From contig OZ237748.1 of NCBI GenBank assembly GCA_965178125.1, positions 62,001 through 126,000 of the forward strand: DNA of 64,000 bases, in the 5' to 3' direction. Position numbers and translations under genes: made by a program. The DNA is from Bilabrum cf. latius (Eukaryota). This document shows positions 7,231 through 49,926 of the stretch, piece after piece (within the stretch, counting starts at the first letter, position 1; each line of letters starts with the position of its first letter). The notes beneath the pieces were generated by a model. It was not told the DNA's origin. It saw only the letters and a list, made by a program, of their open reading frames with translations, and ran no database searches.

Positions 7231-8339
7231 CTGGCAGCTGCACCAGACCCTCCCACTGCAGCAAATACCGGCTTGCCGCCGTCCACGCCATGCCAGTTGC
7301 TACCGCCAGCCGACGCCAACGCACCATCGCCGGGCAAGGCACCCTGTGGACCCAATCTGCCACCTCCCAGCCCCTCCGCGCCCTCCAGCCTAAAGCCCCC
7401 CCCCCCATCCGCCCACTCCCCGGGGCCAGTCCCCGCCCCAGCCAGCGCAAGCCGCCGCGCCCCCGCCCCCGCCGCTGCCATGCCCAGCACGCTGCCCGCG
7501 GCCGCCCCCGCCCACCGCAGCACCCCCATCAGCAGCACCACGTTCAAGCCCCTCGCCATCGGGGTGAGACCCCCCGCCTCCAGAACATGAGCTAAGGCCA
7601 TCGACCACACCGCGACCACGACGCACCAGCACCCGCACACCCCCAGCGCCAGCCATATCAGCGGCCGGTGGCTCCCCGTGGACAGGGGATCTGCCGCCGC
7701 CCCCAGTGACAGCGCAGCAGCCGCCCGCCGGTCCCTTGCCCTGATCGCCCACAGGGCGTCACCCGCGATGATGACGAGGACGACCGAGGCCAGGAGCACG
7801 CGAGCCTGGGCGAGGAGCAGCAGGATCGCCACGGCGGCGAGAAGGGCGCCAGCAGCGAGCTGCAAGAAACCGAGCAAGAGGCCCCGGTGCGCCTGGGGGA
7901 GCCGGGCGAGCGCCGCAGCCACTCCCAGCCCGAACGTGGCCGCAAGTGGCGCGCTAGCCTGGAGCGTCGCGCGGAGTGTGTACCCCGAGTGGTCTGACAG
8001 CCAGGGCCTGCGGTGGCTCGGGTGGTCTTCCTCAGCGGGCTCTCCGCTGCCGTCGTCGTTCGTGCCTGCATCCCCTCCACCGGGATCCTGAGGCTGCCGG
8101 GGCTGTATACCGAGCTTGGTGATGCCGGCAAATGCTACCAACGCAATGCAGAATAAAAGTGATGCCAGGTAGGGAGTGTCCTGCGGATTGGAGTTGGCGA
8201 AAGGTCCAAGCAACGTCCAACGAATACGAGCAAAGAGCAAACTCCAGTCAGCGCTTCAGTTCGTCACTAGGCTGCTCACAATCCAAGACGGCACTATTCG
8301 AATTGACGACTCCTACGCTCTACTCTACCCGTTCCTCAT
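5913..8339 (-). CDS. Choline transporter-like (CTL/SLC44-type) multi-pass membrane protein; intron 8181..8279
   Basis: Multiple TM segments and CTL-like motifs GPSLGSAAAAGL and GVPWVRAAEGTWAAL. Exon 1 (8339..8280, two TAGs) is spliced via GTGAGC...CCGCAG to DTPYLASLLF. Ends TAG-CAG-TGA. Confidence 0.65.
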
Positions 8340-8495
8340 GGTGCTATTTGCTTCAAACATCCCAGGCCAGCACTCATGCATTGTAACGCGCACCTTTGTT
8401 CTCGATTGGTGAATACCGGGCTCTGATGTTGTGGTGTTTCTGCATTAATAAGCCCCCACAGGACCTTGTAATTAGTATCATAGACGGTCCCTGTG

Positions 8496-11400
8496 ATGGC
8501 CGCATCCGAGAAGGTGCGCCTCAACGTGCAGATCAAGGGAAGGGATAGCACACGAACTCGAGTAGTGGCCAGGGTTGACGATGACTGGGAGGATGTGCTG
8601 GCGAAGATTGGGCAAAAGTTGCGCGTGCGAGTTCTGCGAGTGAGATCAATTTTATAAAGTTTCGGCTCAGCTTCGACCGTTTGGGGCTCGGTGGCCAGTC
8701 GAAACTCTTATACATGTTGCAAACTTCACGAGAACGGTTGCTCGCCAAGGCAGCCGTACCACGATTTTTATACCCATGGGGTCATCATAACTTGCCATCA
8801 TTACACGTTTTGTATTCGATGTATTGCCTGCTGCTGTGGCCGTGTGTTTAACCTGCAACACGGGAGGCATGGAGGCAGCGCTAGGTGTCGAAACATTTGC
8901 GTCCCTGTAAGGGGCTGCACGGTTGATGTGGGTGCAACTACTTCGGCATAGTTGCTATTATTGTCTGGATCCGCATTGTTGTTCTATTCTGGGTCATGTT
9001 ACCCCAAACGGATCGGATGAATCCCTGTTGCTTCACGCTGGATTTGTCCAGTCGCTCCCTCACCCAAGCCAAGCCCAGGTGTATTGCCGCTTCTCAAATC
9101 ATTGTCTCGGTCGATTCTGTGTTTTGATTGTTTGCCCGCTAGCAGGTATTGGCCCCGAATGGTGCCCGCGTGGACGACTTGGAGGAGGTGGAGGCGGGCG
9201 AGTTGCTCAGCGCGGTGACCGAGCAAACCGAGCGCGAGGACATGGCAACAGACGAGACCTATGCCAGGGGCTTGGCAGAGTAGAGTACCATGGGCGTAGG
9301 GAAGGAGGATCCCGGCGGATCGGGCGGGGCTGCTGCCCAGGAGCCCATGGGGGTTGGGGTGGGGGGGGCTGTCCCACCCACGGGGGCGTACAGCAGCGGG
9401 GGGGGAAGAATCCGATCGGTGGAATCTGCCCCGGTGCGAGGCCAGGCAGCGGAACCACTGCGCGGCGCCTCGGTGAGCCGCACGCAGTCGGGCAGCGGCG
9501 CCGACCTGGACCTGGGGCGAGGTGAGGTGGGCATCGCTGGGTCTGGAAGCCGGAGGGGCAGCAGGCGCACTCGCGGGAGCATGGGCGGTGGGAGCGGGGC
9601 AGGGGCGGACACGCGTTCGGCCGAGGCACAAGGCGCCACGTCGGCTGGGGAACACGGCGAAGAGAGAGCTGCTGATACGTGGGCGGCGGTGGAGAAGCAG
9701 GCAGAGCAGGCGCAGGCAGCGCAGCGACCCTCCGGATTTGCGGGCATCCTCGGCGCGCTGAATCCCTTCGGGTATTCCGGGTCAGCCGCGGTGAGGGGTG
9801 ATCAGTCCTGGGGAACAGCGAAGGACGCCCGGGGGCTGCCTCCCGGGAAGCAGACGCTGGCGGAGCGGGACTCGGAATCGGAAAGCGGGGAGGCGGACGA
9901 GGTCTCCAGCGGCGGGTACAGGGGCGAGAGCGAGAGCCCGGCGGGCGTCCTCGGTGCCGGTGCCGGTGCCGGTGCGGCGGACGGGTCCTCCAGGGGCAGT
10001 CCCCCGGCCTACGGGGAGCACTTGGTGTCTGGGTCTATGTCTGGGGCTGGGGCTGGGTCAGCTGGGTACGGCGGGGGTGCCGCCAGCAGCGGTGCCGGGG
10101 GTGTAGCCGGTCTTGGCGCGGGTGATGTGGAGGATGCAGGAGAGGAGGTGGGGGGGGATTTCCCCTCGGGGTCACCTGGTGAATAGGGGGCGTCGTCCTC
10201 GCCAGCGGGGGCGCACTCGTCATCCTCTCTGTCCCCGTCCACCCCGTACGAGAGTGCGTACCCGCTGATGGACATGTACGCGAAAGCAGCCGCCATCGTT
10301 GAACTGCAGAAGGTGGGGCCAGCGAGAGCGGACGATTTCCAGGTCACACGAGTGCTGGGCGGCGGCTAGAACGGGCTGGTGGTGGCCTGCACGTGCTCGA
10401 GGAGCCCCGACAAGACCAAGGAGTACGCCATGAAGGTGGTCTTCAACTTCGGGCTGGGGACCAACCAGGCGAGGGGAGAGTACGAGAGGGAGCACGACAT
10501 CATATCCGGCCTCATGCCGCACCCGAACCTCGTGCGGTTCTGGTCCCAGACCCTGGACCCCATCCCGGAGGCCATCGCAAGCATCCTGCCAGATGCGGCA
10601 CAGGCGTCGTACGTGCACAACGGGGAAGTAAGGCGCCGCAAGACTCAGTTCGTGATCCTGGACTACCACCCATTTTCCCTTGACCAGGTGCTCTAGGCCA
10701 TGCCCAGGCCGCTGCCAGTGGACCGTGTGCTGCGGTGGGCGGCTGACCTGATCAGGGGACTGCTACACCTGCGGGCCGGCGGGGTGTCGCATCTGGACCT
10801 CAAGCTGGACAACGCGCTCATCGCCAAAGACGGCAGACTGGTGCTGTGCGACTTCGGGACAGCGAACCGACTGGACCTGCCATTGCTAGAGGCCGAGTTC
10901 ACACACGGCATGCCGACGGGGGGCAACCCGGCGCACTCCGCGCCTGAGGTCTGGAACGCTGTCTCTCGGCTGCACAAGCACAACGGGCTGCAGCTGGCCA
11001 AACAGGCGTGGACGGTCCACTACGCACCCACTGAGGGCATGAGCAACGCGGAGCTGGCCGAGTCGGGCGGCGTGGTGGCACCTGCGCCCTCCATGGCAAA
11101 GGCAGAGACACAGGGGAGGGTAAGCTTCCGGGCCGCGGACGCGTTCTCAGCCGGCATCATGCTACACGAGATGTTCACCGGCGGGGATGCACCTCTTCCG
11201 GACTACCCCAACGGGGCCAAATCCGGGGCCGCAGCGGGCTACATCGCTATAGACCCATCCGAAGTGGCGCCGCTGCCTGGGCACGTGCCCTCCACGGCAG
11301 CCTCGCTGGTCAAGGCCCTCCTTAGGCCCGACCCCCGGGCCAGACCCCCCCTGCGATCGGCGCTGCAGGTGCTGGAGACCGCCACTGCAGATGCAGTGCA

Positions 11401-14400
11401 CGGTGCTGCAGGCCTGCGACAGCCGGCGGAGGGCTGGTCCAGGGAGCAACTGGCCGACGCAGTGGCCCCCGTGCCCCTGCCCGAGGCCGTGGCAGGCCGT
11501 TTGGCCGAGGAGGCCGACAGGAGGCAACGAGAGAGGGTGGCTCGGCTGCAGGCAGAGGCAGAGGCGGCGGCAGCGGCGGCTGCTGCGGGTGCTGCTGCGG
11601 GTGCTGGTGCGTCCGGGGAGGGTCTTGATGCGGGCCAGCAAGCGGCGGGAGCTGGAGCTGGGACCGAGGGTGAGGTGCAAGGACCCGAGTCTGGCGGTGG
11701 CGCTGGCGCTGGAGGGGGGCGCTCTGGTGCCGCACCAGCAGCAGAGGGGGAGGGCAGCGACAGCAAAGTAGAAGAGGGCGACTAGGAGGACGAGCACGAC
11801 GGTGGGGGCACAACCGGTGCTTCCACTGGTGCTTCCTCTGGTGCCGGTGAGTCGTCCGCAGCCGGCAATCAGCTCGCTAGTCGTGCCGTGGGAGGCCTAT
11901 CTCTCCTCGTCAAAGCAGTGGGTGGAGGCACCGCCCACATCGCACTGCCCCCGGGTGCAACGGCTGGTGATGCTCTAGGCCTGGCGATCGAGCAGCTGCC
12001 TGCTCTTCAGGAGAAACTCACGGCCAGCGGGCTGGAGCTGGGCGAGGCCCTGACATAGAGACGACTGGTGCTGCTGCACGCGGGCCAGAAGCAGGACCCG
12101 GGTGCCGACCTTCACGCGCTCGGTCTCGCCCAGGAATCCGCAGTGTTCGCCATGTGGATGCAGGCCGCTGCACCCTCCGGGCCACCGGCTGCTGAGCGCG
12201 GCTCGTCTGCCTCGAGCGGGGCAGAGGCCGGTGGCACCGGTGAAGGGGGGCAGGAGGAGGAGGAGGAGGACAGGGGCGAGGACGGCCTGGAGGAAGAGGC
12301 GGCCGGCGGTGATGGCGATGGAGCCGGGGGGGAGGAGGATGGAGAGGGGGGTGCGAGTGCAGTGGATGCGGAGGGAGGAGCGGGGGGCGAGCAGCAGCAG
12401 GAGGCAGAGGATGACGGTGCGACGGGCGCATTCCCGTACATGCTTACCAAGCCGCAGCTGATTGCGCAGGCCCAGCCAGGGTTCAGCGAGTCATTGAGGA
12501 ACGAGCGCATCCGCATCAGCCACAAGGGCTCAGTGGCCGAGAGCACCCGCACATGGTCCTCTGCGGCTCTCAGGGGAGAGCCGTTCAGCAGAGGCAGACG
12601 GTCATGGCTGGTGGCCATTCTCAGCGCGGAGCACGCGTGCGGGTGCGCCGTGGGACTGGCGGAGGCCTCTCGGTTCGACTTCCACAAGCAGAACCTGGGG
12701 GCGCAGGATGGGAGCTGGGCCTACTCCAAGACGGGCAAGAAGGGCGCGCACGGGCGCGGCTTCCTGTCCTTCGGGAAGGCATACAGGACTGGCGATGAGC
12801 TTGAGATCGACGTGGATCTGCTGGGGGGCGAGCTTAGGTTTTGGAGGAACGGAGAGCTGCAGAGCGGGGGCCCCGCCTGGTCCTCTGAGATCAAGGGGAG
12901 GTCCGTGCTGCCTGCGGTGTGCCTGGGGTCCAACACGGGGAACAGGCTGACTCGGGTGGCTGTGAGGGTGCCCCCGGTGAGGGCCTTTGATCCTGCCAGG
13001 TCGCACCACCGCATGCGCTTCGATGACGCGGGGTCCACGGCGTATAACGACGGCAAGTGGGCCACGGCCGTGGCGGCGCACGCGGGGATCTCCCAGGGAA
13101 CAATTGCCTTCAGCGTGAAGCTGACGGACGTGGAGTCCGGGGGCGGCGTGGCCATAGGCGTGGTTGACGGGTTCCTGTTTGACCACCGTCACGACAACCT
13201 GGGCGCCAGCAAGCACTCCTGGGCGTTCTCCAAGACGGGCAAGATCGGGCGCGGGAGGGGGTTCGAGCCCTATTCGCGAACATTCGGCGACGGCGACGTC
13301 ATCACGTGCCTGTGCGATGCCACGGCGGGTACTTTGCGGTTCTTCGTGAACGGCGTGGACCAGGGGTACGCCTTCTCCGCGGATGGGACCGCTTCTGGAT
13401 GCGATCCGGAGCTGAAAGGCAGGGTGCTCGTGCCTGCCGTGTGCCTCGGGTCCAGCACTGGTCACACCATGTGCCGGGTGCGGCTCATGCAGCAGGTTGT
13501 GATGCCCATCCTTCACTTCGATAGGTATACGGTCCGGAAGGGGGACGCCGGCGAGCCCATGGTCGCCTTCAACCGAGATGCAGCCCGGGCCGAGACCATG
13601 GGGGAGTGGACCACGGTCATGGCGCAGCACCCGGGGGTGAGGGACGGCTTCTTGACATTCGCGGTGAGGGTCGATTCAGCCGAATCCCACTGCGGGGCGG
13701 CCATCGGAGTGGCCGACGCAGTTCTATTCGAGCCGAAGCGTGCCAACCTGGGCGCCACCCCCAACTCCTGGGCCTACTCCAAGACGGGCAAGGCAGGCGA
13801 CGGCACCGGGACATTCAAGCCGTACGCTGAGAAATTCGCGTCGGGTGACGTCATCACCGTTGACTGTGACGTCAGCAAGGGCACGCTCCAGTACTTCAAG
13901 AACGGCATCCCGCTGGGCCTCGCCCCCGTGTCCCACTCGCTCAAGGGCAGAAGGCTTGTTCCTGGTGTGTGCATCGGGTCCAACCACCAGAGCAGGTACT
14001 CGGCGCTGTCACTGTGCCCCCCCTGCGCGGTGAGGTGGGACCAGAGGCTCTGCAATCGTCACATCCAGCTGGACGGTCCCCACGGGGCCTCGAGGGCATA
14101 CACGGACTACAAGTGGTGCACTGTCCTTGCCCAGCATCCGGGGGTGCGAGACGGCTGGCGCATGGCCTTCAAGGTGCTCGTGGGCCAGGCAGAGGCAGGG
14201 ATCGCCATCGGGCTGGCCGACCCGAGGTACTTTGACCCGCAGCAGCACAACCTGGGAGTGAACGGACACTCCTGGGCACTTTCCAAGAGCGGTAAGAGGT
14301 CGAGCGGGGAGGGATGGCAGACCTTCGCCAGCCGCCTCAGGCTCAAAGAAGGCGACGAGCTGGGCGTGTACGTGGATCTGAGGGACCCTGCCGGCCCCGC

Positions 14401-14683
14401 GAGCGACCTGGACGAGGCGGGGGCGCGCTGCCCCGACGACCGAGGATGCGTGGTGTTCTACCTCAACGGCAGGCGGCTGGGTGCGCAGGACCAGACCCAG
14501 GCCTTCGATGGCCTCTACGGACAGGGCCTGTGCCTGGTCCCCGCGCTGTGCATGGGTACCACGGCGGGTGGGGCCCCGGGGCAGGCGCAGCTGTCCCCCT
14601 TCCATCCACCGGACCATCCCACGGCGAACGGCGGCGACAGGGCGATGGAGGGCGGGCCAGCGACCGGTGGGGCCGACGCGTGA
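8496..14683 (+). CDS. PINK1-like Ser/Thr kinase + ubiquitin-like domain + 4 SPRY/B30.2 domains; probable intron 8625..9145
   Basis: One frame from 9146 to TGA 14681 with TAG at 9281, 10184, 10367, 10694, 11783 and 12056. Kinase motifs: LGGG*NGLV, YAMK, PHPNLV, HLDLKLDN, DFG, GGNPAHSAPEV, ADAFSAG. UBL at about 11897-12157. Four repeats of NLGA..SWAYSKTGK...GD.I...D...G.L.F..NG (SPRY). Exon 1 structure is inferred. Confidence 0.8.
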
Positions 14684-14719
14684 TAGAGCCAGCGACCGGT
14701 GGGGCCGACGCGTGATAGA
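14656..14719 (+). repeat. 32-bp tandem duplication spanning the kinase/SPRY stop codon
   Basis: GCCAGCGACCGGTGGGGCCGACGCGTGATAGA occurs twice, exactly. Confidence 0.9.
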
Positions 14720-17700
14720 GCTGACTGGCGCTAGGGGGTCGTTCTCTTCCTCTTTCAGCTCCTCCTCCTTTTCTTCTACTTCTTCTTCTCGATCGCCTTC
14801 GATTCGGCGTCGATTCGATTGGGTGCGTGGCGCACCCCTACATGCACTGCACTGCAGTGGGCTGCACTGTGCTTCGACTGGCAACATTCGATGGTGTGTC
14901 GGCGGTGGCGCCACCAGCAGCAGCAGCAGCAATAGCAGCAGCAGCAATAGCAGCAGCAGCAGCATGTTCTACACTTCAACAACAACAACAACAACAACTA
15001 CAAAAACTTCATCCAACTCCTCCCCCCGTGACTCCGCGGTATCGCCATCCCTCGGCCAGCGCCCTCCAACCCTTTGCTCGCCTGCCTGTCCCCGTCGCGG
15101 GTACGTGTGGGCAAAGGGGCGGCTAGGATGGACGATGGCGGGATGGCCGCGGTGGCCCGGGGGCTGCCCGGCTGGGAACATATTTGCCCCCGCGATCTGG
15201 GGTAGCGTGACATGCAGCGTGTCCTGTTCCGTGTCCCAGCCGGCCTTCCCTCCTTCAATCCTTTCCTCCTCTCCCTCTGATTCCTCCGTCCAGTCGGTCC
15301 GTAGCGCACCCGGGTGCGGGGTGCAGGCGCTTTACTTCAGCCGGCACTGTGGCGCTGGTTGCCAGACTGGACGTGATCATCGCGCGGTTCTGCCCTTGCA
15401 TGCAAGGGGTGCAAGGCGGCCCAGGCAGGCGGGCTTTCTGTCGTTCATTGACTCGAAACCACGCGATTCCTTCATTCTACACCCACTCATCCGCAACTGC
15501 AATTAGCCTTTCACGAGCCTCTGTCCATCCTGGATACCCAAGACGGATTGGGTGCGTACTAGATCTACTCTGTATTCACTCTGGCAGCAAAGGCAGCAGG
15601 TACACACCACGAGCTCGCTTCTGTTTCACCCAACGACAGAATGGCTGTGACCATTCTGGCATCCGGCAAAGCTAAATGCGCCTGAACCTTCTTCGTACCC
15701 AGCATTCTCTAGGCGTTGAAAGTACTCGGTACGAAGGCGATCTTGATGTGCCGTGATCAGTTGTACTTCTCCTTTGGCTGCTCCTGCTCTAGCTCTTGGT
15801 CGGCCGCGAAATTGCCTGTGATAGCACCGAGTGCTACTTAACACTCCGTGTAGCTGGCTTTCGAGAAGCAGCTGCATGCTACTACTTGCTGGCTATACTC
15901 AGGGCATGCGTTGGGAACAATGCCTAAGGGCGCGAATGACGAGCCTGCTACTACTAGTAGTACTGGTAGTCATCGGCACTGCCACTGGCAGCAGTGCATG
16001 CATCCCTTGCCTCTTTGCCGGCGGGCTGGATGGGCTTGCCCGGGACAGCCTCCGCCACAGTCTGCTAAGAAAAGCAAATATATCCAAAAAGGTGGAAATG
16101 TGCGCCTACTGTAAAAACAACACGTGGTCGATACAGTTAAACCGACCCGCCCCGTCACACCAAGTCCCGAGCAGAGCCCGAGGTCCCGAGGCACGGTCAC
16201 CGCGAGCCAATGCGAGCTTTTCTGACGCACCTCTGCACCACTCCTCACCTCCAGCTGCTTTGCAATTTTTCGAATGCACAAGAAAGATCCGATTGGGTAC
16301 CGTTTGATGTCTGCATTGGAAAGTTGGTGCGTTGTGCAGCCGGACGCACTCTCGGCGGCATCCGTGCCACCACTGGCAGGCTCAACCTACTCGCAAGGTC
16401 TGCTTGAAATGGGCCCATCAACACATTTACCGGAAGGCATTTGTCCGATGCAGCTTTCTACGGAAGGGTATCTTCTGAGATTGTTGGTTGTGTGGCACAC
16501 TTGCTGCCGCAGTTCCGCTATTGGATGGGCCGGCGTCACTGTGTTGTTTACTGCCGGATCAAACCCGCCGGCATTAGACCATTGCAACCGCACCCTGACC
16601 ACCGCATGCCAACTTTGATACTCCAGCGTAGTACTTAAATATAGATCAAAATGCAAATTTCAATGCCAGTAATTCAGTCAATGTTTTGCCTTTTACCGTG
16701 CCAGCCCTAGAATACCCTCGCCCTCCTCGCCAATAGCTCTTGTTGCCGATGCAAGCAGTGCTTCCGCCGGCGCATCCTGGCCCAAAACGCCCAAGTGGCC
16801 CATCCGTAATCTGGATGCAACAGACCGACGCATTAATTAAATTGCCTTTGCTTGCCCTGCACTGCCCTCACGCTTGCCGAGTATCAGCCACCTGCTCTTG
16901 CCTCCACCGCGCATCACGTGGCGTTTCTTGCACTCGACATTATCTCTACTCCACCTGCTGTACTGCCGAGGCCGGCGTGAGTCGCCCAGGCACCATGAAA
17001 ACGCCTTAAGAAGCTTCGTTAGTCCGCCAACACATCGTGGCATGTATTTACTGCACTGGCATGCGCTGGCATCCCCTACAATCTCAGGCACGATCGGCAG
17101 CAGCGCCACTGTCCTCACACGCTGTGTGCGGGTCCATCGGCGATGCGGGGCGGACCAAGGCGGCAGCTACGGTGCCACCCGATGCACGGCCCGAGCAAAA
17201 TAGGTTTCTGTGCGTCCTTTTGAGCGCCGGGTGTTGATCCTTGCCCCACGGTGAATCTTGGCTCGCCCAACTCGGGTTGCTCTGGCAGAGTGGCAGCAGC
17301 CTGGGCCTGCCGTGTCACTTTGCGGCTGAGTGCCGGCTGCAGGCGTTTCCTTTACTTCCTTACAGTCCCTATTTCGGTTTGGAGTAATTCTACTGCAAAG
17401 CCTTGTCAGGGTAGGGAATAGGATTGGACCGGAAGAGAATGGCTTGTGCGAGCCGGTAGCTGTCCTTGCGGGTTGGTTCGATTTCGGTCCGGGCGAGCTT
17501 GGGTGGCGATGCTTCCGACCTGTCTCAATTCTCTTGGTCCTAACGAGCATGGTGAGCTCCTGCGCGACAATGGTATCAGAATCTAATAGCCGGGTTCTTT
17601 GATTCGATGTGGTCGGTGAGCGCGTGGTCAAAACGCTAGCTCGCATTGAGGTTGGTATGCTGGGACAGAATATATCAGGATCCTTTGGAAGGCTACAAAG

Positions 17701-21516: not shown

Positions 21517-21795
21517 ATTGGGCTAGAAAATGCTTGAGTCGAGCACGACGGAGCTGCGGAACCAGGTTGTGGCGCCGCGCTTGGTGGACTGCCGCGTAAT
21601 TTGACAAATCGTAACTTATAGCCAATACTAGCCAATTATTGCTGATTCTGATAACGTATTCGTATTAATTGTGTAATATACTATTGAATCACCGTATTTG
21701 TAGCGTGTGAACATATTGAAATAAGTCAGGCGAGGTGTTGATCGCTTGCTACCGGCTGGTTTGAGCTCTTACCAGCCCATTGTTGATCTCTGACC

Positions 21796-24700
21796 ATGGC
21801 AAGCGGCTAGGCTAGCATGAGCAATCCATCTAATGATGGGAATAGGCGCCGAGCGGTTGGGACGCTCGGCATACTCGGTAGTACATGCGCTGCAACTGTG
21901 AAGCACGTGCAGCGCAGGTGGTACACTTGCATTGGGGTGTCATCACAGCGACAATCTGACGATTGCTGCACTTGCAAAGTCAGATTTGGTCGCTCTTGCA
22001 TAACGTTGGCTGTCGTGATACTTCTTCTTGCTGGTCTCGTTTCGATAGCGGCGGAGGCGATTCGGCTCGCACGATTGGGCGACAGCGGCCTGGGCTCGCT
22101 CCACGGACCGACCGCTGCGGGCGCGTCAGCAAGTAGACCGGCTGCGTTTCTCTCTGATACCCCCGAGCTGGCGGACAGCGGTGCCCTCCTCGAGCTCCAA
22201 TCCACCCGTGGAGCCAAGCCGAGCTCCCCCGGGGTAGGCATCCCCACCGACACCCTGCTGCAGCAGCAGCAGCAGTAGAAGCAGGCCGCCAGCGAGCATG
22301 TCTCAAGCTCAGGCTCAAGCTGGCTGTATGGTGGCCCCGATATTGCGCCTGCCTATGGCGGGCCGGGCTTCGGGACAGTCCGCGTTTCACAGGCAGGGCA
22401 GGGACAGGGGCAGGGGCAGGACCAGGGTTAGTCTTCAGTTCAGCCCATGCATGTCGTTGTGGCTGCGGGCGACGCTTCAGGCGGTAGGACTGGCGGCGGC
22501 ATGCGACCACTGACACGCTCATCGCGGGACCTAGCGGAGCGATGGCCGCTGTGGGAGCGTGTGACGATTGCGTTGGGCTAGGCTGTAGACCGTGTTTGGC
22601 ACATGGCGGCTTCTTTGCCTGCACGTTTCCACTCATCTTCATCTTCGGATGCTGCTGCTGCACCGGCCGTGGATCCAGTCCTGGACGTGCTCGAGCCGAT
22701 GGGAGAGGCTGCAAGCGCGGGTGACTACGACAGGGCAGCAAAGCTGGGGAACAGCGGAAGGGGCCGTGGACGGGGCGGTGCCATGGGCAGAGACAGGGGG
22801 GTGGAGGCTCGAGCGGACAACCTGGGCGGTCTATCTTTCGAGTCTCGTTGGGCCCCCGAGCCGATTGACGTGGTGTACACGTGGGTGAACGGGAGCGATC
22901 CCCTGTGGCTGGCGCAGCTGAGGAGATTCAGGGCCATGGATTTGAGGAGGTAGAGCATGGCACAGGGTGAAGATGGAGGTGAAGGTGAAGACGGAGGTAA
23001 AGATGAAGGTGATGGTGGTGGTGGCGGTAGCCAAGGCACTGACAAGCAGGGTCGCGATCATGGTGAGGATGCAAGAATGGAAGGTGGGCACATTTCAGGG
23101 TCAGGCGACGCTGACTCCAACTCGCCTTGCAGCCGCCTGGGTATCGCATCGGCTGATCAAACTGGTAATGGAAGTGCTTTAGCGCCATTTACGTCGCATG
23201 GGTTGCATGCCACGGGCGCGATTCAGGCGGGTCTTGCGCTTACAGTGTCGCGGCAGGTGGGTCGCGCGGTGGTGGCCAGCGCGGTAGAGGCTCTGCGATT
23301 AAATGCATCGGGGGAGGCATCAGGTCCGTGGGACGCGGGGCTTGTGGAGGCCATGGTCGTGCGGAGTATGGGAGGACAGCTGCTGGGTGGGGTGCCGGGT
23401 GATGCGGCATTGGAAGGCGCGGCTGCGGGAGATGAACCGATGGATGGCAGAAGCAACAGGTTCAATGAGTCGAAGGAAGGTTCCTTGGAGCCGCAGTGCG
23501 GTGCAAATGGTGTGAAAGTCGCGGGCATCACGGATGCCTCCTGTCAGTGGGTAGGGGACGAGATGGCGTGCGAGGCACTGGCCCGGTTGGTGGCAAGGGT
23601 GCCTGCTGCGGCGCATGACCAAGAGCAGGGGAATGAGGATGGAAATGAGGACGGGAACGCTGCCAGTGATGAGGAATCCGCCACCTCAAGCAGCAGCACA
23701 AACAGCGGCGATGAGCGCGCCACAGGTGGCAGACCCAGCGATGGCAGCACAGACCAAGCAGATGCAGCCGTCGCAATGAGCAGCCCGTTTCCCGCCTTGA
23801 ACAGTAGCTCGTGTGTTCGTATGAATGTTTCCATTGCTGTGACTCTGCTTGGTCACGCGTGGTAGGGGTCCTGGTGGCCGGGTGCAGTGCACGCTGACAC
23901 ACCTCAGGAGGTGCAAGGCCGGCTACTGGTGGCAGCTGGATTCAGCGGAAGGAGCAGGCAGTCTGATGCAAGGTGGGCGGGCGTGCTGGAGGCAGGGGTG
24001 GGGTGGGTTAGGGACCGTGTGAATCGCACAATTAGGGCCGCAGATGCAGATGCAATGGAGGTGGAGATGCATACCGAGAATGGGCAGGTCCCGTCTGATG
24101 ATTCCGACTGGCAGCAGCAGCAGCAGGATGAGGAGGAGGAGGAGCGACATGGCTACTCCCACTTGGCTTGGATGTCCAGCACCGAGCAGCCCATGCCAGG
24201 TATACGGAAGGAAGCAGAGGAAGAAGGAGAAGAGCCGAGCGAGCATGGCCTTGGGGGAGCGCACAGCCATGGATCTGCCGGGCATATTGGCGGGGCGGAT
24301 AGCAGCAGAAGCGAGGGCAGGTCGGTCCATTGCGACGGCCCCGTGACTTGCGAGCAGAGCAGGTTCTGCCTGGAAGGCGACATGGAGCTGCACGAGTCCG
24401 AGGCACGTGTGACGAGTGCGATCTGCGGGGCGGCGCGGCATGCGACCAATGCATGGGAGGCGTTCAGCGCCCGGGAGGCCGCCGTGGAGGAGAGGCAGGC
24501 GGCGTGCGAAATGTGGAGGGAGGGCGAGGAGGCCAGCGCACGCGGGGGCGAAGGTGAGAGGGGCATCGATGACAGCACTCAGCAAGGGGATGACAAAGCG
24601 GGCGAGGGGGAGGGGGGCGATGATGCGGCCTCGGCAAGCCGGTACCGAGACAGCAACGAGCTCAAGTATTCGATGCGATCTCTCTTCAAGTACGCCCCTT

Positions 24701-27700
24701 GGATCAGGAACGTGTACCTGGTCACTAACGGACAGGTGCCCAGCTGGCTGGACCTGAACCATCCCAGGATCGCTGTGGTGCCACACGCAGCCATCTACAG
24801 GAACGCCTCCCACCTTCCTACGTTTTCCTCGCCTTCCATCGAGGTGCACCTGCACCGAATCAGGGGCCTCAGCAGACGGTTCCTGTATCTGAACGATGAC
24901 GTTATGTTTGCGGCCGACGTGTGGCCGGAGGATTTCTACACGCACACGGGGGGCTAGATGGTGTACCTAGGCTGGGAGGTGCCCAAGTGCAGCCCGGGCT
25001 GCCTCGACAACTGGATCGGGGACGGGTTCTGCGACCAGGCGTGCAACAACGAGAAGTGCGCTTGGGACGCGGGCGACTGTGCCGAGAAGAACGCGGGCAC
25101 TGATGGGGACGGGGGTCAGGGCGGGGGCAGCGGAGAGGGTGGAGGGCAGGAGGAGGACGACTCGGAGTGGGATGCGGGCCAGTGCTCTCCCGGGTGTCCG
25201 AGCTCCTGGCTGGGTGATAGGGTGTGCGACGCCAAGTGCGATGTGCAGGCATGTGGGTTTGATGGGGGAGACTGCGGGGTGCATCGCATGGTCGCGCTGC
25301 AGGTGCAGTAGAGATACTGGCAACACCCGGAGACCAGAAACGGCAGTGCAGTGCAGCTTCCGGGCGGCATTCAGTGGGCCAGGTTCGAGCTGACGGGGGA
25401 TTCGCCGGGTCCTCCGGCCGATCTTTTGGTGGGTGGATACAACGATGCAGTTGGCGATGAAGATGGCACTGCCGTGAATGGTGCCACGCAGGGCACAGAA
25501 GCAGCATGGGGCATTGGGGGTGGGCAGGGCACAGGGTTTGGTGCAGGGACCGATGCTGACGGACACGGGCGCGCCGGTGGCAGGCCGGTCTCGGTTGCGG
25601 GGCAGGTGGCCAAACAGGCGGTAGCAACTGCAATGGCTCGGCTCAGGAACGCGACCATAGCGCTGCAGTGCGGTGCACCTTCCAGTCAGCGCGACGCGAA
25701 CGCGACAGTCACGGCAGCGGCCCGTGTGCTGAGAGAGGCAGGGAGGCACGAGCTGGTCGGAAGCAACTGGGGGGATGTCAGTGCTGTGCTTGGAGGTGGT
25801 GGTTGGAGTGAGCTGGATGAAGGGTTGCATGGTGGGAATAGTCAGAGTGGTAGTGGCAGTGCTGCTGGGAATGAGGCTAGTGCAGCAGCAGGAGATGGAG
25901 AAGGAGAAGAAGGAGGGGGTGGGAGTGGAGTCCTACTGCCGATGATGCGGCCGGCGGGCGACTGGGCAAGCACCACAGCGGGGTGGGTGAAAGAGGAGGA
26001 GGACGAGGACGAGGAAGACGGGATGTCCAGGGTCTAGAACAGGGCAGCTGCGGTCTCCCTTGCAGCAGCGGGAGGCGCAGCAGAGGGTGGGAGGCGAGCG
26101 GCAGTGGGTGTCGTGCTTGGGGTCGTTGGTGCAATCCTGAAAGGGGGGCACGGAGGCATCGGTGAACGCAAGGCCGCTTCTTCAGATATCGGGTGTGATG
26201 AGTGCGGTGTGACGAGTGGGGATGTCCAGTCCGAGTGGGTTAGTTGGGGCGAGGAGGAGGGCGAGCGGCTGGGGCGGCTTGCATCGAGGAGACAGGCCGG
26301 TCTGTTCGCCGCAGGTCTCAGGAAGTGGATCAAGCGGGAGGAGAAGGAGCGGGGCGATGCGGATGCTGATGAGGATGAATACTGGTAGAGGAAGGGGCGC
26401 GAAGCCATGCTTGCGATGTGGGATAGGGAAGCGAGAGGAGGAGGTGAGGGAGATGATGCTTCGGGTGGTGTTGAAGGGGATGATGCTGTGATGGAGGAGG
26501 GTGTGTGGCAGTGGGGCGGGGGCAGCAGGGTCCGAATGACCGACCTCTCGTTCGGCGGTGAGGATCCGGGGAGTTTCATTCGGTTTCTCGTCGGATGGGA
26601 GCATTCGGCGTCTGCTGTGCTGGGATGGAGCGAGGACAGGTTCGGGCTGTGGCAGTGGGCGCGCACAGTCCGTCCGAATAGCCAGTCGCAAATCAGCCAT
26701 CAAGACGAGACCAACGCAGGTGAGCATGGTCAGCAGAATCAAGCAGGCGACGCTGCTGCCCTGACTCCGCTTGGAAACTCTACCGGTGGATTGAATGCCA
26801 CCAACTCGGGTGTGATGGGACCGACCGAGCCTGCGATGAGTGGCATGCAGCAGTTTGAGCTGGCTGCCATTCGTGCTGCACTGGGCTGCACCCGATTCTA
26901 CCGGTCCTCAGGGCAATCAGGCTTGCGAGACTTTGAGGCAAGCGGTGCATCAGCATAGCCTGCACAGGACGATCAGTAGGCGAGCGCATCTCGCTCCTCC
27001 CAGTGCGGTGCATACCCCTGCAACGCAACCGCTGGTGCACTGAATGCCAGCTCGCCAGTGCCCAACGCTAGCCTAGCTGCAGGTGTGCTGCACGGTGAAG
27101 CCAACATCGGGGCGGCGGATGGTGGGGGCCCAGGTGGTGGGCACGCACAGCTCAACGCAGGCTGGCTTGCAACGGTGTGCGGCAATGGCGTGGCACAGGA
27201 GCAGCTGCTTGACGAGTCGGCACTCGTCACACCATTGCAGGCGTGGATGCGCGTGCAGCTGCGGGCGGAGGGGCCTTCAGCTGCAGAGGAAATCAAGCAG
27301 AATGAGGGGGAGGAGGAGGATGAGGGTGGTGCATCCGAGAGTTCAGCCGGCGGGCAGCGGGCTGGTCGCGCCATTATGCTGGCAAATCGGGTGATGTCTG
27401 CGCTGTCGATGCCCGGCGGTGTGGAAGCTGGTACTGGCGCATCTATATCATCGCCGCCACTGTTATCTGTAGAAGCGGAATCAGCATCAGCTGAAGGCCA
27501 GACTGACGGGCCGTCGCATTCGGCTGTGCAGGACAATGAGCAAGTTGAGCATACTGAACATACTGAGCTCGTTGAGTGGCTGGCCAGTGCAGGTGAGGAG
27601 GCGCTCGAGGAGCTTCTCTCGGAAATCGATGGGCTAAAGCGAGTGCCACTCAGTGTGACGATTGAGGCGCCGCTGCGGTGGGTCACCATGACAGGCAAAG

Positions 27701-30048
27701 CGTCGCAGCAGGCCACCGGAGACTCGTCACACCATCGCAACCGTCGGTTGGCTGCCGCGATGGAGAGCCGGGGCATCTCTGCCTCTGCCTCATCTGTCGC
27801 GGCTGGAGATGCTGCCTTGGACATTGGCAGCATGTTTCGGCCTTTGTCAGCTGCAACTATGAGCAGCGAGGGCAGGAGGAGCAGCATTGCGGCTAGTAGA
27901 AAGCGGAGACTGTCCGGCACGGTGGTGGCTAAGCCCGACCCTGTACCTGGGCTTGGATTCGGAGCTGATCGAGCAAGCAGTGGCATAGTACGGACCAGCG
28001 CGCTTCCCTTCACTCGTCACACGGTTGGCCCCCTTCCCGCCGCCGCGGTGCCTCTCGCCGGCGCCGCCAGAATCGAGGCGGAGAGGGACTGGGCGAGGTG
28101 GGCGCGGGAGGCGGGTGCACTGCACGAGGGTGCATAGGTGCGGGTTGGATCGAGCGGATCGATCACGCAGGCCGTCCCGTTGCCCAGCGGCGGGGGCGGG
28201 GATGGCAGCGGGAGTGCTATGGCGAGGGGCATGAGGTCCCTGCGAGCGGGGGCGGGGGCGGCATTAGCGAGTGGCAGCAAGGGTGACTCAAGCGATGGCG
28301 GGCACCATTGGAGCCGTGGTGCAGGCCCCGATGCCGCTAGTACCGCGGGTCATGATCGAGCCGCTAGTACCGCGGGTCATGATCGAGCCGCTGATACCGC
28401 GGGTCATGATCAAGTCGCTGGTATCGCGGGTCATGATCAAGTCGCTGGTACCGCGGGTCATGATCGAGTCGCTGGTATCGCGGGTCATGATCGAGTCGCT
28501 GGTATCGCGGGTCATGATCGAGTCGCTGGTATCGCGGGTCATGATCGAGTCCTGAGGGCGAGGGCAGAGGTGGAGCTCGGTGCCGTGCTGGCATGGGCGA
28601 GGACGCAGCTGTCCCGCGCCGAGGAGGAGCGATAGTCACCAGGAGACGAGGCGATGGGTTGTCATGGGAGCCCTTGCGATGTGCTGGAGGATCCTGCGGC
28701 GCTGGCGGAATGGGCCAGCGATCAGTACGACGGGCTAGCAGGTGTGGAGCATGCCATGGGGCAGGGGCACGAGCCTTCAGGTGGCGCGGATTCATTCGCT
28801 CTGCCGCCCGGGACGGGCGCGCTGTTGCGGTCGTTCGCGACTCGGAATGGATAGTCAGGTTCACACGGTAGGAGTCCTGCTGCCAGGAGGCGGCTGGACA
28901 CGTACGGGGACTCCCTCGTTCACTCGAACAAGCTCATCTCGGGCGTCTTCGGCCGCCGCACGCGCAAGGTGCCTGCTCACATGCCGCACCTGATCGATCG
29001 CCTTGCCATGCACCAGCTGCAGGAGGCGTTTCCGGGAGAGTTCCAGGCGACGTCCGCGCACCGTTTCCGCAGCTCGTAGGATCTCCAGTACGCATTCACC
29101 TACATGTGGTGGCTGATCGAGGGCGGCGCCCGTCGGGGGATCGACCTTCAGGGGTACTGGAGGAGGGAACTGGACACGGACGGGGACGGGCACCTGAGCG
29201 AGACGGAGCTGAGGACTCTGGTTGCGGTGGTGAAGGGGCATCCACCCGAGGAAGGCGAGGTGGAAGAGGTGAGAGAGTGCCTCGGGAATGCGACGGTGCG
29301 ATCCTCGGGTATGCGCAGCGATGGTGTCGATGGGAATGAAGGCGGTGGGAAGTCCTACTAGCAGGGTGGCGGTGGTGCTGGTGGCCACTCGCCCGAACTC
29401 ACCCATGAGACAAGGCAGGCGGGAGTGGCAGATGCCAGGGAACAAGGAATGGGTCACTCACAGGCCGACAGCTCCACCCCGCACCTGTCTACCACTGGTG
29501 CTGGTGCCGGTGCCGCTAGCAGCAGCAACAACAGCAACAACAACAGCAGCAGCACCAACAACAGCCAGTCGGACCCTGTGGACCCCACAAACCCCCGGGG
29601 AATTCCCCTGGAGTGGCTGACTCTCCGTTCCCTGTCCCAGTGCCCCTCGGCCCTGGACGGACTCAGGCAGCACGCGCGCTTCCCCCGCACCCACACGGAG
29701 CAGGGCGAGGAGGAGATCACCTTCGAGATGGTCACGGACGACCTGGAGGCCACGAGGAAGCAGCTGGATGGGGCGAGGCACCGCAAGACCAAGTTCCTGT
29801 GCGTGAACGACAACATGGAACAGGCGCCGCCGGCCACGCACCAGGCGCTCCAGGATTTCTTCCTGTCGATCGTCCCGCTGCCATGCCCGTTCGAGCTGCC
29901 GGAGGGCCGCACCAACCCGCACCAGTACCTGGGTCCGCTGTTGCACGGCATGTGGAGGAGGAAGATGATCGCGCTGGGGCTGAAAGCAGCGGCAGCGGTG
30001 GTCGTCCTAGTGGTGGTGGTGCTTGCATGGTGCCTGTGCTCGAGTTGA
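21796..30048 (+). CDS. GNPTAB: Stealth-family GlcNAc-1-phosphotransferase alpha/beta precursor (GNPTAB-like), ~2750 aa
   Basis: N-terminal TM, CR1 ([14 protein letters not shown]), CR2 ([34 protein letters not shown]), two LNR repeats, CR3 ([12 protein letters not shown]), EF-hand ([12 protein letters not shown]), CR4 (FLCVNDN) and a C-terminal TM. Single frame with 17 TAG. Ends TGA. Confidence 0.92.
28333..28548 (+). repeat. In-frame 27-bp coding minisatellite x8 ([AV]A[SDG][TI]AGHD[RQ])
   Basis: GYCGCTRRTAYCGCGGGTCATGATCRA units in tandem within the GNPTAB-like spacer. Confidence 0.95.
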
Positions 30049-30496: not shown

Positions 30497-33400
30497 ATGG
30501 GCTGTGGAGCTTCAGCCCTGCAATCGGGGCCCCATGAACCAGTAAGACGTACTACCTTATGCAAAGTTGTAGGCAATGCATACATATACTCAGTATCACC
30601 CTGCAAACAACTTGACAAATTGTATCTGCAGGCAAGCCAATGCATGGAGCTGCGAGTCGCTAGCTTTGCGAACAAGTCCCGGCCTGATGGACCATACTTG
30701 TAGGTAAGAGACATTCACACATAGTTACACTGATTTAATATGGTCAGCTATCGTGTGCAATACAGGGCTTCCCACCCAAGGACGGTGGTCAGCGACTCCC
30801 TTGTTTCCGTGGTAGCACCATGCTCTGAGTGGGACGCGAATATGGCTCACGGAGTTCTACTTAACACTGAGTGATATATTCCCTTGCAGGTTTGCAATGA
30901 GCGCCATCAGTACGACACAAGAGGGCACATTCGATCTCGGCCAGCACGATTCTGCCGATACTGGATCGTTGGCGTGGTTTACACAAGTGGAGCGAGGGTA
31001 TTTTTTGCTCCATCACACAGCGAAGCATTTTCACTTCGTTAGGGGCTGATTGGACTGGCGCAGCGTGCAGGTGGACCGCTTCACAACGAGAGAGAAGAGC
31101 TAAGCGGCCCCACAGGACAGGCGCCTGCTACAGATCCGCATGCACGCAGTATTCACAGCAATGTTATGCTTCAAGCCATACTAGATGCGGATTTACAAGT
31201 TGCTGTGGCTCAACAACCAGAACAGACGAGCAGCAATAGCGCAGTTCTGACTCTTGGAAGGGTTACAGTGACAGACGCACGCACTGGGATGGGAGACACG
31301 CTGGCAGGCAGTTCTGTCCGCATGACGAGCGCCGGGTCCAAGGATACATCGCCGTCGTACTTGAATCACGCCTAGACGGCCACTAGCATCTCTACAACCA
31401 GCGCCACCATCCCAAGTGCCACCAGCAAGGCCTGCCACCAGCGCCACCAGAAGGACGAGATGGATGTCACTGGCAGCCGACCCATCAAGCCCCTACACAC
31501 TGGCAGTGCGACAAAAGAAGGAGCCCCCATTGCAGTAGGGGCTACTGCAGGAGATAATGCCTTTTCTGCACTACCACTACCCGCTGTGCCTCGATTTCCT
31601 GCCTCTCCAGCTGCCGATCGCAAGGAGGACCGCAAGGCTTTCAGGTACGGCGTGATGACGAGTGAGCGCCAGGCGCGGTGGGCTTTGGCCGAGGCTTGGC
31701 AATCCACCCATGAAGCGAGAACCTCGTGCCGCTCCTCCGTAACTGGAGAGAGAAGAGGCCATGTCGGGCAGGTCGCAGCGAGTGTCTTGAAACTCGGTGC
31801 CCCGTGCGAATAGGACCTGTTCCATGATCCGATCAACGATCCTATTACATGCGCTCCCACCGAGCCCGTGTCTGCTGCCGGCTTCACTAGTGACCCGGGC
31901 CTTCATGGCTCGCCAGAGGACCGAATCTAGGCCTGTGAAAACGTCGCAGGCCACGCAGCCAAGAAGGACAGAAGCACCTCCACTGCCCAAGGCTTGGGCG
32001 GCGACCTTGTCGCCAATCGCATGGGAGGCGCAGCCGAACGTGATCTATCCACGGTCCACCGCAATGTATCCAATTTAGACCCCGCTGGAACCGAGCACGA
32101 TGGCAGTACCGGTGCCCGCGTCACGACAGGCAGGCTCGCTATGGTGATTTCGACCTCTCCTTCCAGTGCGCCGGTGAGCTCCAGCCGCATGAGCCAGGTC
32201 GGGGAAATAGATGTGATCGCGTGCATGCAGCAATCCGGCGAGTCCCATTCGCAGCGGATCATGAATAGCTCCCTTCGCGGTGGAAGAGCGACCAGGCCAA
32301 GGAGCACCAGCGGCAGCAGCGGCAGCAGCAGCAGGTGCACCGCGGAGGCATGGAGGGCGCGGGGCGGCGCACCAAAAGCTGTCAGGGAGTCAAGTGCCTC
32401 GAGCGTCGCATCATCGAGCCATGCGTCTAGCCTCCCTGCGAGGCATCGCCCCAGAGACTACGAGGCTCCGCTGCTGTTCACTGCCAAGGACATACGATCG
32501 TCGAGTCAGTGGAAAAGACGCGTTGCGCGGTACAAGATGCACCTCGCTAAAGAGACTGCACGCAGCCAAACAAGTGAGCGGGCCGTCAACGCCGCAGAAA
32601 CATGGCCACACGTCGCAAATGAGGGGGAAGCTACTAGCCTTTCCAGGGGGATTCGCGGCAGGGCGCGGTCGTGCTCGAGCGCCAGCTCGTCGAAAACTCC
32701 ACCGATGGAGGGAAGGACCCCGCGACTCAAGGTGTACGAACGGCCTTTCGGTGGATTGCACGGCGGGCAAGTGATAGAGGTGAGAGTGCCGCGGGCCAAG
32801 GAGAAGCGGACGGAAGAACCGCGTGGCATTTCCTTCGCGTGTGGAAGCAGAGGCAGAGGCAGAGGCAAGCATCATCCATCGCGCCATGTGGTTAGAGGCA
32901 GGGTCCTGCCCGCCGCATCCGGATCATGCACTGGCACGTGTGGGGACGATAATGGTGATGGCGACACATTAGGGCTTGCTGGCCTGGCGTGTTTTCGTGC
33001 AGTCGAGCTCATATGTGGCAAAGAGCTCGTTGGGCAGCGGCTGCCCGACATCGTCGCCACCCCGGGTGACGGGTCACAGGGAGGCTCGCTTGGCCCGTGC
33101 AACACGATCACGCAGCCCAACTATGCAGACGTATCAATCCCTTGCAGAATTGAGCGAGAACGGGTGACGAGTGGAGACTCAGATGCCACCCCTATCCGGT
33201 TCTCTAGCGCGCTCAACCTCAGGTCGTTCTCCCGAGGCAACGTTCCAACTGAGATTTAGTGTTACGTTTCTGGACGCGACCCCTACGGTGGCAGCGATGG
33301 CGCGGCAAGTCCAGACCACGCGAGCGTATCCGGCAGCCTCCGAGGAATGCCGTTCGCAGCACTGAGCGACATCGGTGGTGGTGGACCTGGTGGGGAGATG

Positions 33401-49638: not shown

Positions 49639-49926
49639 GATCGAAGTATCGCTGGGGGTCAATGGCATTTTGACTATCCGGATCCAGTAGAATCTAATTA
49701 ATCGCATCCGATGATAAGGTTATTAAGCAGGGATACAGGGTACGTCAGGCACACCACCGTGACAAAGATTCTGAGTCGGTCAGCATTAACCTTTTTAATA
49801 TACGGTAGATCCTGATTCTATACACAAGGTTGTAAAAATCCGCAACCGTTTGTTCTGTGCATTCTGGATTAACGGAGCTAACACGGATGCATGGGCGCAG
49901 TGGGTTTTCGAGACCGGATCCCCGAC

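Follow-up and report, generated by a model that had tools for sequence, protein, structure and literature searches.

In a 64,000-nt stretch of the Bilabrum cf. latius genome (contig OZ237748.1, positions 62,001 to 126,000 of the forward strand; hereafter the window, whose own numbering is used throughout), a two-exon gene at 8496 to 14683 was found to encode, with TAG read as glutamine, one polypeptide that joins a PINK1-like protein kinase to a ubiquitin-like domain (UBL) and SPRY domains. The order of the architecture is KHA-like domain, disordered linker, PINK1-like kinase, UBL, acidic linker and four SPRY domains. In animals, PINK1 is a sensor of mitochondrial damage that phosphorylates Ser65 of ubiquitin and of the Ubl domain of Parkin, and the UBL of the window protein keeps a serine at the Ser65 position. 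Literature searches for a PINK1-like kinase that also carries UBL and SPRY domains returned no description of this architecture. To us, the combination of domains, its spread among microbial eukaryotes and a UBL of Ser65 type tethered in cis are new, and each single domain and the closest enzyme were known. The features of the gene are as follows.

8496 to 8639 (+): exon 1, 48 codons, coding for the first half of the KHA-like N-terminal domain
8640 to 9145 (+): intron of spliceosomal type, GT..AG, 506 nt, with the joint 8639->9146 in run contigs
9146 to 14683 (+): exon 2, 1845 codons and a TGA stop (14681 to 14683), in frame with exon 1
9146 to 9220 (+): second half of the KHA-like domain (VLAPNGARVDDLEEVEAGELLSAV), hidden Markov model (HMM) positions 45-70
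9221 to 10330 (+): linker of Gly/Ala/Ser-rich low complexity, with no Pfam match and no hydrophobic segment
10331 to 11362 (+): PINK1-like protein kinase, from Pfam, PDB searches (single sequence and family profile) and alignment A1
11363 to 11896 (+): linker, helical or low complexity, variable, with indels against a close relative
11897 to 12157 (+): UBL, beta-grasp with an extra helical insert after helix 1, from AlphaFold2 (AF2), Foldseek and profile A2
12137 to 12139 (+): Ser codon TCC at the ubiquitin Ser65 position, start of strand 5, from the profile-ubiquitin alignment
12158 to 12532 (+): acidic linker of Glu/Gly-rich low complexity, where contig assemblies break
12533 to 12931 (+): SPRY 1, from Pfam, with phmmer boundaries
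13055 to 13450 (+): SPRY 2, from Pfam, with phmmer boundaries
13604 to 13984 (+): SPRY 3, from Pfam, with phmmer boundaries
14111 to 14563 (+): SPRY 4 with an acidic loop insert, from Pfam and phmmer, the 3' boundary judged from the translation

Domains of the product

An earlier note on this DNA, made from the letters alone, had read a PINK1-like kinase, a UBL and four SPRY domains in one polypeptide. The kinase motifs that it quoted (AMKVVFNF, PHPNLVR, KTQFVILDYHPFSL, LVLCDFG, GGNPAHSAPEV and ADAFSAG) all stand in the frame 10163 to 14683 with TAG as Gln, and the translation carries SHLDLK, with the HLD for HRD that had been remarked on. Pfam assigned Pkinase to the open reading frame (ORF) with an E-value of 3.4e-19. 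Catalytic residues were located at the Lys codon 10433, HLD (10790 to 10798), the DFG Asp (10850) and APE, the last followed by an insert of ~45 aa that is private to the window kinase when set against the rows of A1, a kinase alignment of 14 family members. The catalytic K, helix-C E, H.D, K, N, DFG, GN and PE are invariant in A1, and since all catalytic residues are kept, the kinase family should be active. A pseudokinase was ruled out on the same ground.

When the single kinase sequence was searched against the PDB, the six best matches were PINK1 chains (E 3.6e-12 to 9.1e-12). With profile A1, all of the top 12 distinct sequences were PINK1 from louse, beetle and human (E 2e-43 to 8e-37, 130-152 bits), the matches covering profile positions 13-333, which is nearly the whole domain, and the best non-PINK1 matches scored 99.9 bits and then 95.8 bits (PLK4). 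Judged by this sequence comparison, PINK1 is the closest characterised kinase by a wide margin with the family profile, the lead over other solved kinases being 30-50 bits; the clear margin is seen with the family profile only, not with the single sequence. The family resembles PINK1 in several further ways. The window kinase has an N-lobe insert at the position of Ins3, equal in length to that of Tribolium PINK1 when the two are aligned, and its family shows (F/W)N(F/Y) after the catalytic Lys with Ser/Thr at Lys+9, PHPN(I/L)V, GGN before APE and a 'DYS..' segment at helix F. According to a published study (bioRxiv 10.1101/2023.03.31.534916), PINK1 binds ubiquitin or the Parkin Ubl through its Ins3 loop, which is ordered by phosphorylated Ser228 of human PINK1 (Ser205 in beetle, Ser202 in louse) and whose conserved residues include Arg302, Gly307 and Gly309.

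The differences from PINK1 are as marked as the likenesses. The window kinase lacks the C-terminal extension (CTE), the alignments stopping at the kinase end (chain residue 366 of 463), it has HLD where PINK1 has HRD, and it has many closer relatives that are not PINK1 (350 representatives at E ≤ 1e-10). The product lacks mitochondrial targeting, a transmembrane (TM) segment and the N-terminal extension (NTE) of PINK1, and its kinase, found in microbial eukaryotes, shares one chain with KHA-like, UBL and SPRY domains. From these sequence features we conclude that the window kinase family is probably a PINK1-like sister family and not a PINK1 orthologue. An orthologue was ruled out by the absence of a mitochondrial targeting sequence or TM segment, of Ins2 and of the CTE, together with HLD for HRD; the kinase of the earlier note thus stands as PINK1-like in the sense that PINK1 is its closest characterised kinase with profile A1, and a place in the strict PINK1 (NKF2) family, for those same reasons, did not hold.

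The segment after the kinase was poorly visible to single-sequence methods. The string taken for a UBL in the earlier note (LSLLVKAVGGGT...TQRRLVLLHAGQKQ...LGLAQESAVFAM) is present in the translation with TAG as Gln, and Pfam ubiquitin (PF00240) gave no match at E ≤ 0.1 on the window protein alone. We used A2, an 11-row UBL alignment with the window sequence first, which has effectively 10 rows because that of P0024 is 95% identical to the window sequence. The A2 profile matched mono-ubiquitin with E ~1e-21 and 78 bits, profile positions 7-79 lying on ubiquitin 1-72, and its Ser/Thr column, where the window has the TCC codon at 12137, falls on ubiquitin Ser65, as had been claimed. All 11 rows have Ser/Thr in this column, the sole polar one that is fully class-conserved; the other columns conserved in this way are hydrophobic core. 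AF2 with A2 returned a model with a predicted local distance difference test score (pLDDT) of 91.3 and a predicted template modelling score (pTM) of 0.83, in the order strand-strand-helix-strand-strand-strand, with the Ser as the first residue of the last strand; the fold predicted without an alignment (pLDDT 52, all-helical) was uninformative and was replaced by the A2 model. In a Foldseek search with this model, ubiquitin chains came out on top with probability 1.00 and a template modelling score (TMt) of up to 0.82, and 411 matches at E ≤ 0.001 were found among the best 500 counted, although the identity of the UBL to ubiquitin in the fold alignment was about 16-19%. An HMM of the post-kinase segment matched 17 of 265 collected proteins, training rows included.

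By model and profile, then, the segment is predicted to be a true ubiquitin fold, and the beta-grasp of the earlier note was borne out. It shares with ubiquitin and the Parkin Ubl the beta-grasp, a family profile that runs end-to-end with ubiquitin 1-72, and Ser at the Ser65 position. It differs from them in its extra helical insert after helix 1, in being tethered to the kinase instead of forming a separate protein, and in being internal: it runs on (...FAMWMQAAAPSG) into the linker, without a C-terminal Gly-Gly. This internal position and the lack of Gly-Gly argue for a built-in UBL, not a conjugatable modifier.

The N-terminal domain of the window gene is split by the intron, and it was matched as two weak pieces. 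An HMM of the N-terminal domain of homologues matched exon 1 with positions 15-48 and the start of exon 2 with positions 45-70, weakly and collinearly. The homologue N-termini matched Pfam KHA (PF11834) in 5 of 5 cases at E ≤ 1 (best 1.5e-7, 31.7 bits, cut-off 29.6), and they gave weak matches to two plant channels, KAT1 and AKT1, in their KHA regions (E 0.07-0.3). The suggestion of a KHA-like domain in exon 1 thus gained from the collinear pieces and the homologue matches, and the domain extends into the start of exon 2. At the other end of the product, Pfam SPRY (PF00622) matched the ORF in four stretches with an E-value of 3.4e-40 and 137 bits, compared to a cut-off of 26.3; weak solved relatives of these domains are the SPRY domains of RyR, SPSB3 and DDX1. 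With Pkinase and four SPRY matches in one open frame when TAG is Gln, the reading of kinase, UBL and four SPRY domains in one polypeptide agrees with the data. No hydrophobic or TM segment was found in the product, where the top 19-residue Kyte-Doolittle mean was 1.53 and the top windows lay inside SPRY domains, and its N-terminus has no mitochondrial targeting sequence, TM segment or NTE, being KHA-like instead.

Gene model, reading of TAG and run contigs

The gene consists of two exons with ATG at 8496 and TGA at 14681, giving a product of about 48 + 1845 = 1893 aa when TAG is read as Gln. The extent of 10340 to 14683 given earlier falls short on the 5' side, where the gene starts at the ATG 8496, beyond the intron 8640-9145. 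To examine this region, public run contigs were compared over 8200-14900 from four runs, X1 (DNA), X5, X6 and X7; the label of RNA for X5 to X7 is a guess, X6 being given as 'probably DNA', and no run is on record as RNA. Contigs of X5, X6 and X7 start at 8459-8465 and continue to 8639, and ATG 8496 is the first ATG downstream of these starts. Each of X5, X6 and X7 (3 of 4 runs, two studies) has one contig with the joint 8639->9146 and zero depth inside the intron, whereas X1 spans the intron at full depth without the joint. An intron-less DNA copy would give the same pattern of contigs as splicing. Three features favour splicing: the intron has GT..AG ends, with GTGAG directly 3' of exon 1; the frame continues in phase at 9146, after CAG; and G+C is lower in the intron (0.50) than in exon 2 (0.68). 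We therefore favour the view that the gene is seen spliced in public run contigs, from runs labelled RNA by guess.

Two minor observations concern the ends of the gene. One contig of X6 ends at 8465 with loose letters that presumably come from a sequencing adapter, which they resemble, and this fits a complementary DNA fragment end near the 5' end of the transcript. At 14656-14719, a perfect 32-nt tandem duplication (14656-14687 and 14688-14719) includes the TGA stop of the gene, and run contigs break there.

The frame that contains exon 2 (9128-14683, 1851 codons) is open only with TAG as sense, since it holds 7 TAG, 0 TAA and 0 internal TGA codons. One of the 7 TAG codons (9140) is intronic, leaving 6 in the coding sequence, at 9281, 10184, 10367, 10694, 11783 and 12056, beside 60 CAG and 6 CAA codons for Gln in exon 2. 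The standard code thus cuts the coding sequence 6 times, which might be taken for a pseudogene with real TAG stops, or for a frame that is open by chance in GC-rich DNA. We consider such an artefact very improbable. TAG is read through in all of the 10 longest ORFs of the window under TAG = Gln, each with 1-17 in-frame TAG codons, no in-frame TAA and a TGA end (10 of 10), and the number of ORFs of at least 300 aa in the 64 kb rises from 28 (12,424 aa in total) with the standard code to 50 (29,158 aa) with TAG as Gln. A close relative provides a second line of evidence. Its proteins P0020, which is 98% identical to the window protein, and P0024 (91% over the kinase part and 79% over the full BLASTP alignment) share one contig of 3479 nt. 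At both of the TAG sites that could be aligned (10694 and 12056) these proteins carry Q; one more TAG lies in an indel, and the remaining sites are outside the coverage. The TAG in the glycine loop (10367) pairs with Q (GGGQNG) in the closest homologues. Domain matches with E-values from 1e-19 to 1e-40, the existence of spliced contigs and an architecture conserved at 35-45% identity also speak against an artefact.

TAG is thus Gln throughout the window, and this reading is not ad hoc. The scans of the 64-kb window for tRNA genes and with Rfam returned no tRNA gene, hence no suppressor tRNA, and no Rfam match. P0020 and P0024 are fragments that start at internal Met residues, which is the expected output of a standard-code gene caller on a gene that contains TAG, and the database entries for the window protein are such TAG-cut fragments only. 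The locus illustrates a nuclear code in which TAG is Gln, here in a GC-rich eukaryote whose genes of this kind escape standard gene callers.

Kinase and UBL were found together on assembled molecules. A contig of X5 (2753 nt, about 9425 to 12177) and one of X6 (2881 nt, about 9425 to 12307) skip just a masked repeat at 11543-11612 and carry both domains with zero changed letters, so the TAG codons are unchanged there. Other contigs run from 12398 or 12415 to 14685 and take in all four SPRY domains. No contig of the compared runs bridges 12312-12397, between the UBL and SPRY 1, a point to be set against the account favoured below. The unbridged stretch is 86-107 nt of Glu/Gly-coding low complexity that recurs elsewhere, seen as a depth spike in X1, and the gap is a hole in a low-complexity repeat, not evidence for two transcripts. 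The single transcript of the earlier note is accordingly supported for the joint of exons 1 and 2 and for kinase and UBL on single contigs; with no bridging contig, its continuation through the SPRY part rests on the open frame and the homologues.

Recurrence of the fusion and its possible mechanism

In order to place the gene in a family, 1.84 billion representative proteins were searched with the kinase domain of the window, which gave 19,440 matches at E ≤ 0.001, 350 at E ≤ 1e-10 and 20 at E ≤ 1e-30. Among 25 of the best 150 kinase relatives that were run through Pfam, four combined kinase and SPRY domains (P0022, P0027, P0039 and P0040). P0022 also has a Pfam ubiquitin match between kinase and SPRY (28.6 bits, cut-off 25.4), and P0027 a KHA match at its N-terminus. 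Three further proteins, namely P0267 (kinase, ubiquitin and SPRY), P0268 (kinase and SPRY in a complete ORF from a marine microbial-eukaryote transcriptome) and P0269 (SAM, PINK1-like kinase and two SPRY domains), complete the set with both domain types. Besides P0022, 6 of 8 further relatives have a Pfam ubiquitin match that exceeds the cut-off. The UBL is N-terminal of the kinase in P0093, P0159, P0136 and P0082, which have no SPRY domain, and C-terminal of it in P0149 (no SPRY), P0267 and P0022. The architecture is kept down to 35-45% identity, and the recurrence in relatives shows that KHA-like domain, kinase, UBL and 1 to 6 SPRY domains form a conserved family and are not an accident of the locus.

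The members of this family come from metagenomes and marine transcriptomes. One source gives Pink1 as 'not identified' in Ectocarpus (PMC3097184). Homologue searches with profile A1 and with P0022 returned family members; a word-based search with the kinase region among long proteins gave weak bacterial kinase-ATPase matches only, and the true family was missed. More distant members of the kinase clade (P0052, P0053, P0047 and P0057) are fusions to Sel1/TPR repeats, ankyrin repeats or a dynamin-type GTPase, and a PDB search with P0052 was dominated by Sel1 matches and uninformative on its kinase. As far as these sequences indicate, microbial eukaryotes have joined the PINK1-like kinase to many partner modules.

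The account that we put first, tentatively and with less than even confidence, is that of a soluble kinase of PINK1 type whose phosphorylation site is the Ser65 position of ubiquitin folds, with the tethered UBL as its first target or regulator and the SPRY array as a receptor. At about 1893 aa, the product would be a soluble Ser/Thr kinase with several domains. Its kinase would phosphorylate ubiquitin-fold domains at the Ser65-equivalent, as its sequence features suggest, the cis-tethered UBL would be a substrate or an autoregulatory pseudo-substrate, and the SPRY array, perhaps with help from the KHA-like domain, would bring in targets or determine where the protein is located. The catalytic residues and the PINK1 hallmarks (the Ins3-like insert, a Thr with the spacing of Ser228/Ser205, GGN and the 'DYS..D/Q..A.G' helix) make a ubiquitin-fold kinase likely, and the lack of mitochondrial import, TM segment, NTE and CTE argues that it is not a mitochondrial-damage sensor of the PINK1 type. 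Repeated fusion of kinase and UBL in different orders suggests a functional link between both domain types, and together with the known activity of PINK1, this recurrence makes enzyme and substrate (or pseudo-substrate) the simplest reading. We infer that the kinase may phosphorylate its own UBL or ubiquitin, and the self-contained phospho-UBL module of the earlier note is to that extent a putative one.

Several observations weigh against this account. The lead of PINK1 with the single sequence is narrow (49.2 compared to 47 bits, with ZAK/MLT at E 1.6e-11), and HLD is found in the window kinase and 11 of 14 A1 rows, with HRD in 3 of 14. Ins2 mediates the trans-autophosphorylation dimer of PINK1. 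The window kinase lacks it; between helix C and PHPN, louse PINK1 has 18 inserted residues compared with the family profile, and Tribolium PINK1 has about 22 more residues than the window kinase in the Ins2 region. In a weak segment of 4.4 bits, the Thr at Lys+9 (codon 10460) is aligned to Ser205 of Tribolium, which is the first Ser of 'QSNS', and in the profile alignment to louse PINK1 the family Ser/Thr lies two residues further on. Arg302, Gly307 and Gly309 of Ins3, as listed in the study cited above, are apparently replaced in the window kinase, the mapping to human numbering being inferred through the Tribolium alignment. Ser/Thr at the Ser65 position is also common in ubiquitin-like proteins such as NEDD8 and Parkin and may be structural, so its retention alone is weak evidence for the predicted phospho-site. 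A prediction of the complex between the P0022 kinase (108-452) and UBL (457-550), made with alignment A3, ATP and Mg, gave 0.00, 0.71 and 0.00 in its runs with a mark of 0.32; with controls that were not folded it carries no verdict, and it is used neither for nor against binding.

The order of kinase and UBL recalls other systems. IKK-beta and TBK1 have a kinase followed by a ubiquitin-like domain, and by analogy with them the UBL could be a structural or regulatory neighbour, packed against the kinase or close to it, that controls the activity or substrate choice of the kinase, its own Ser65 position staying unphosphorylated and the SPRY domains bringing in substrates. This is possible, if on the doubtful side. 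The spacing of just about 15-25 residues between kinase and UBL in the compact homologues P0022 and P0039, where the ubiquitin fold lies directly C-terminal of the kinase as in IKK-beta and TBK1, would suit such a neighbour, as would the generic protein-binding nature of SPRY modules and a structural role of Ser/Thr at the Ser65 position. In the window protein, however, a low-complexity linker of ~175 residues separates kinase from UBL, and the UBL lies N-terminal of the kinase in 4 relatives, a variation in position that IKK-beta and TBK1 do not share and that argues against one fixed packing geometry. Moreover, IKK and TBK1 were not among the best 60 solved matches of kinase profile A1, and the window protein lacks their scaffold/dimerisation domain, with SPRY repeats in its place. 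A second comparison is offered by SplA of Dictyostelium, which combines SAM, SPRY and kinase domains and gave SPRY its name; its kinase is tyrosine-kinase-like and it has no UBL. The window protein shares with SplA the combination of kinase and SPRY, and the relative P0269 that of SAM, kinase and SPRY, with the difference that the window kinase is PINK1-like and accompanied by a UBL.

The target might also lie in trans. The kinase might act on Ser65 of free or conjugated ubiquitin, with the cis UBL as a docking element or decoy (for example for the proteasome or for partners with ubiquitin-interacting motifs or ubiquitin-associated domains) and with the SPRY domains picking the site. We regard this as unlikely. 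It would fit that the UBL family profile matches ubiquitin itself most closely and that the PINK1-like N-lobe features are present, but the key residues of Ins3 differ from those of PINK1, and recurrent fusion to a UBL that keeps Ser/Thr in all 11 rows is more simply explained by enzyme and substrate.

If the account of a PINK1-type kinase acting on its tethered UBL is correct, the family offers an independent, naturally tethered enzyme-substrate pair for the question of how PINK1-type kinases read the ubiquitin fold. In these microbial eukaryotes, a PINK1-like kinase is permanently joined to a UBL that keeps Ser/Thr, placed on either side of it, with SPRY, SAM and KHA-like domains as partners. 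This allows a direct test of whether phosphorylation of the Ser65 type is older than, or lies outside, the PINK1-Parkin pathway. In a wider and speculative view, which we would sooner doubt than believe, the family would be a natural 'Rosetta-stone' fusion of a PINK1-type kinase and a Ser65-bearing substrate domain, phospho-ubiquitin or phospho-UBL signalling would exist in microbial eukaryotes independently of mitochondria and Parkin, wired to targets selected by SPRY domains, and the PINK1-Parkin pair of animals would be one specialised branch of a ubiquitin-fold kinase system that is older and broader.

Other features of the window

Downstream of the kinase gene, an ORF of 2753 codons with 17 in-frame TAG codons (21787-30048, + strand) codes for a GlcNAc-1-phosphotransferase-like protein with Stealth CR1-CR4 and two Notch/LNR repeats, and very long low-complexity inserts lie between its conserved blocks. 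It is followed on the same strand by three tandem paralogous ORFs of 1171, 1340 and 907 codons (30875-34390, 35798-39820 and 40796-43519), which have no Pfam match and share blocks such as ...FFAP.HGEAFSL... and ...SSLP.RHRPRD...PLLFT...; the middle one contains a perfect tandem repeat of ~20 aa. Two features were found on the minus strand. At 47541-49779, ~2 kb are open in all three minus-strand frames with the standard code and hold a long tandem repeat with a unit of ~38 aa (...STALMLHHLHGHQPLRPQHHRR...), and at 55330-59826 a TAG-containing ORF of 1498 codons, mostly of low complexity, ends in a C-terminal Rieske [2Fe-2S] domain.

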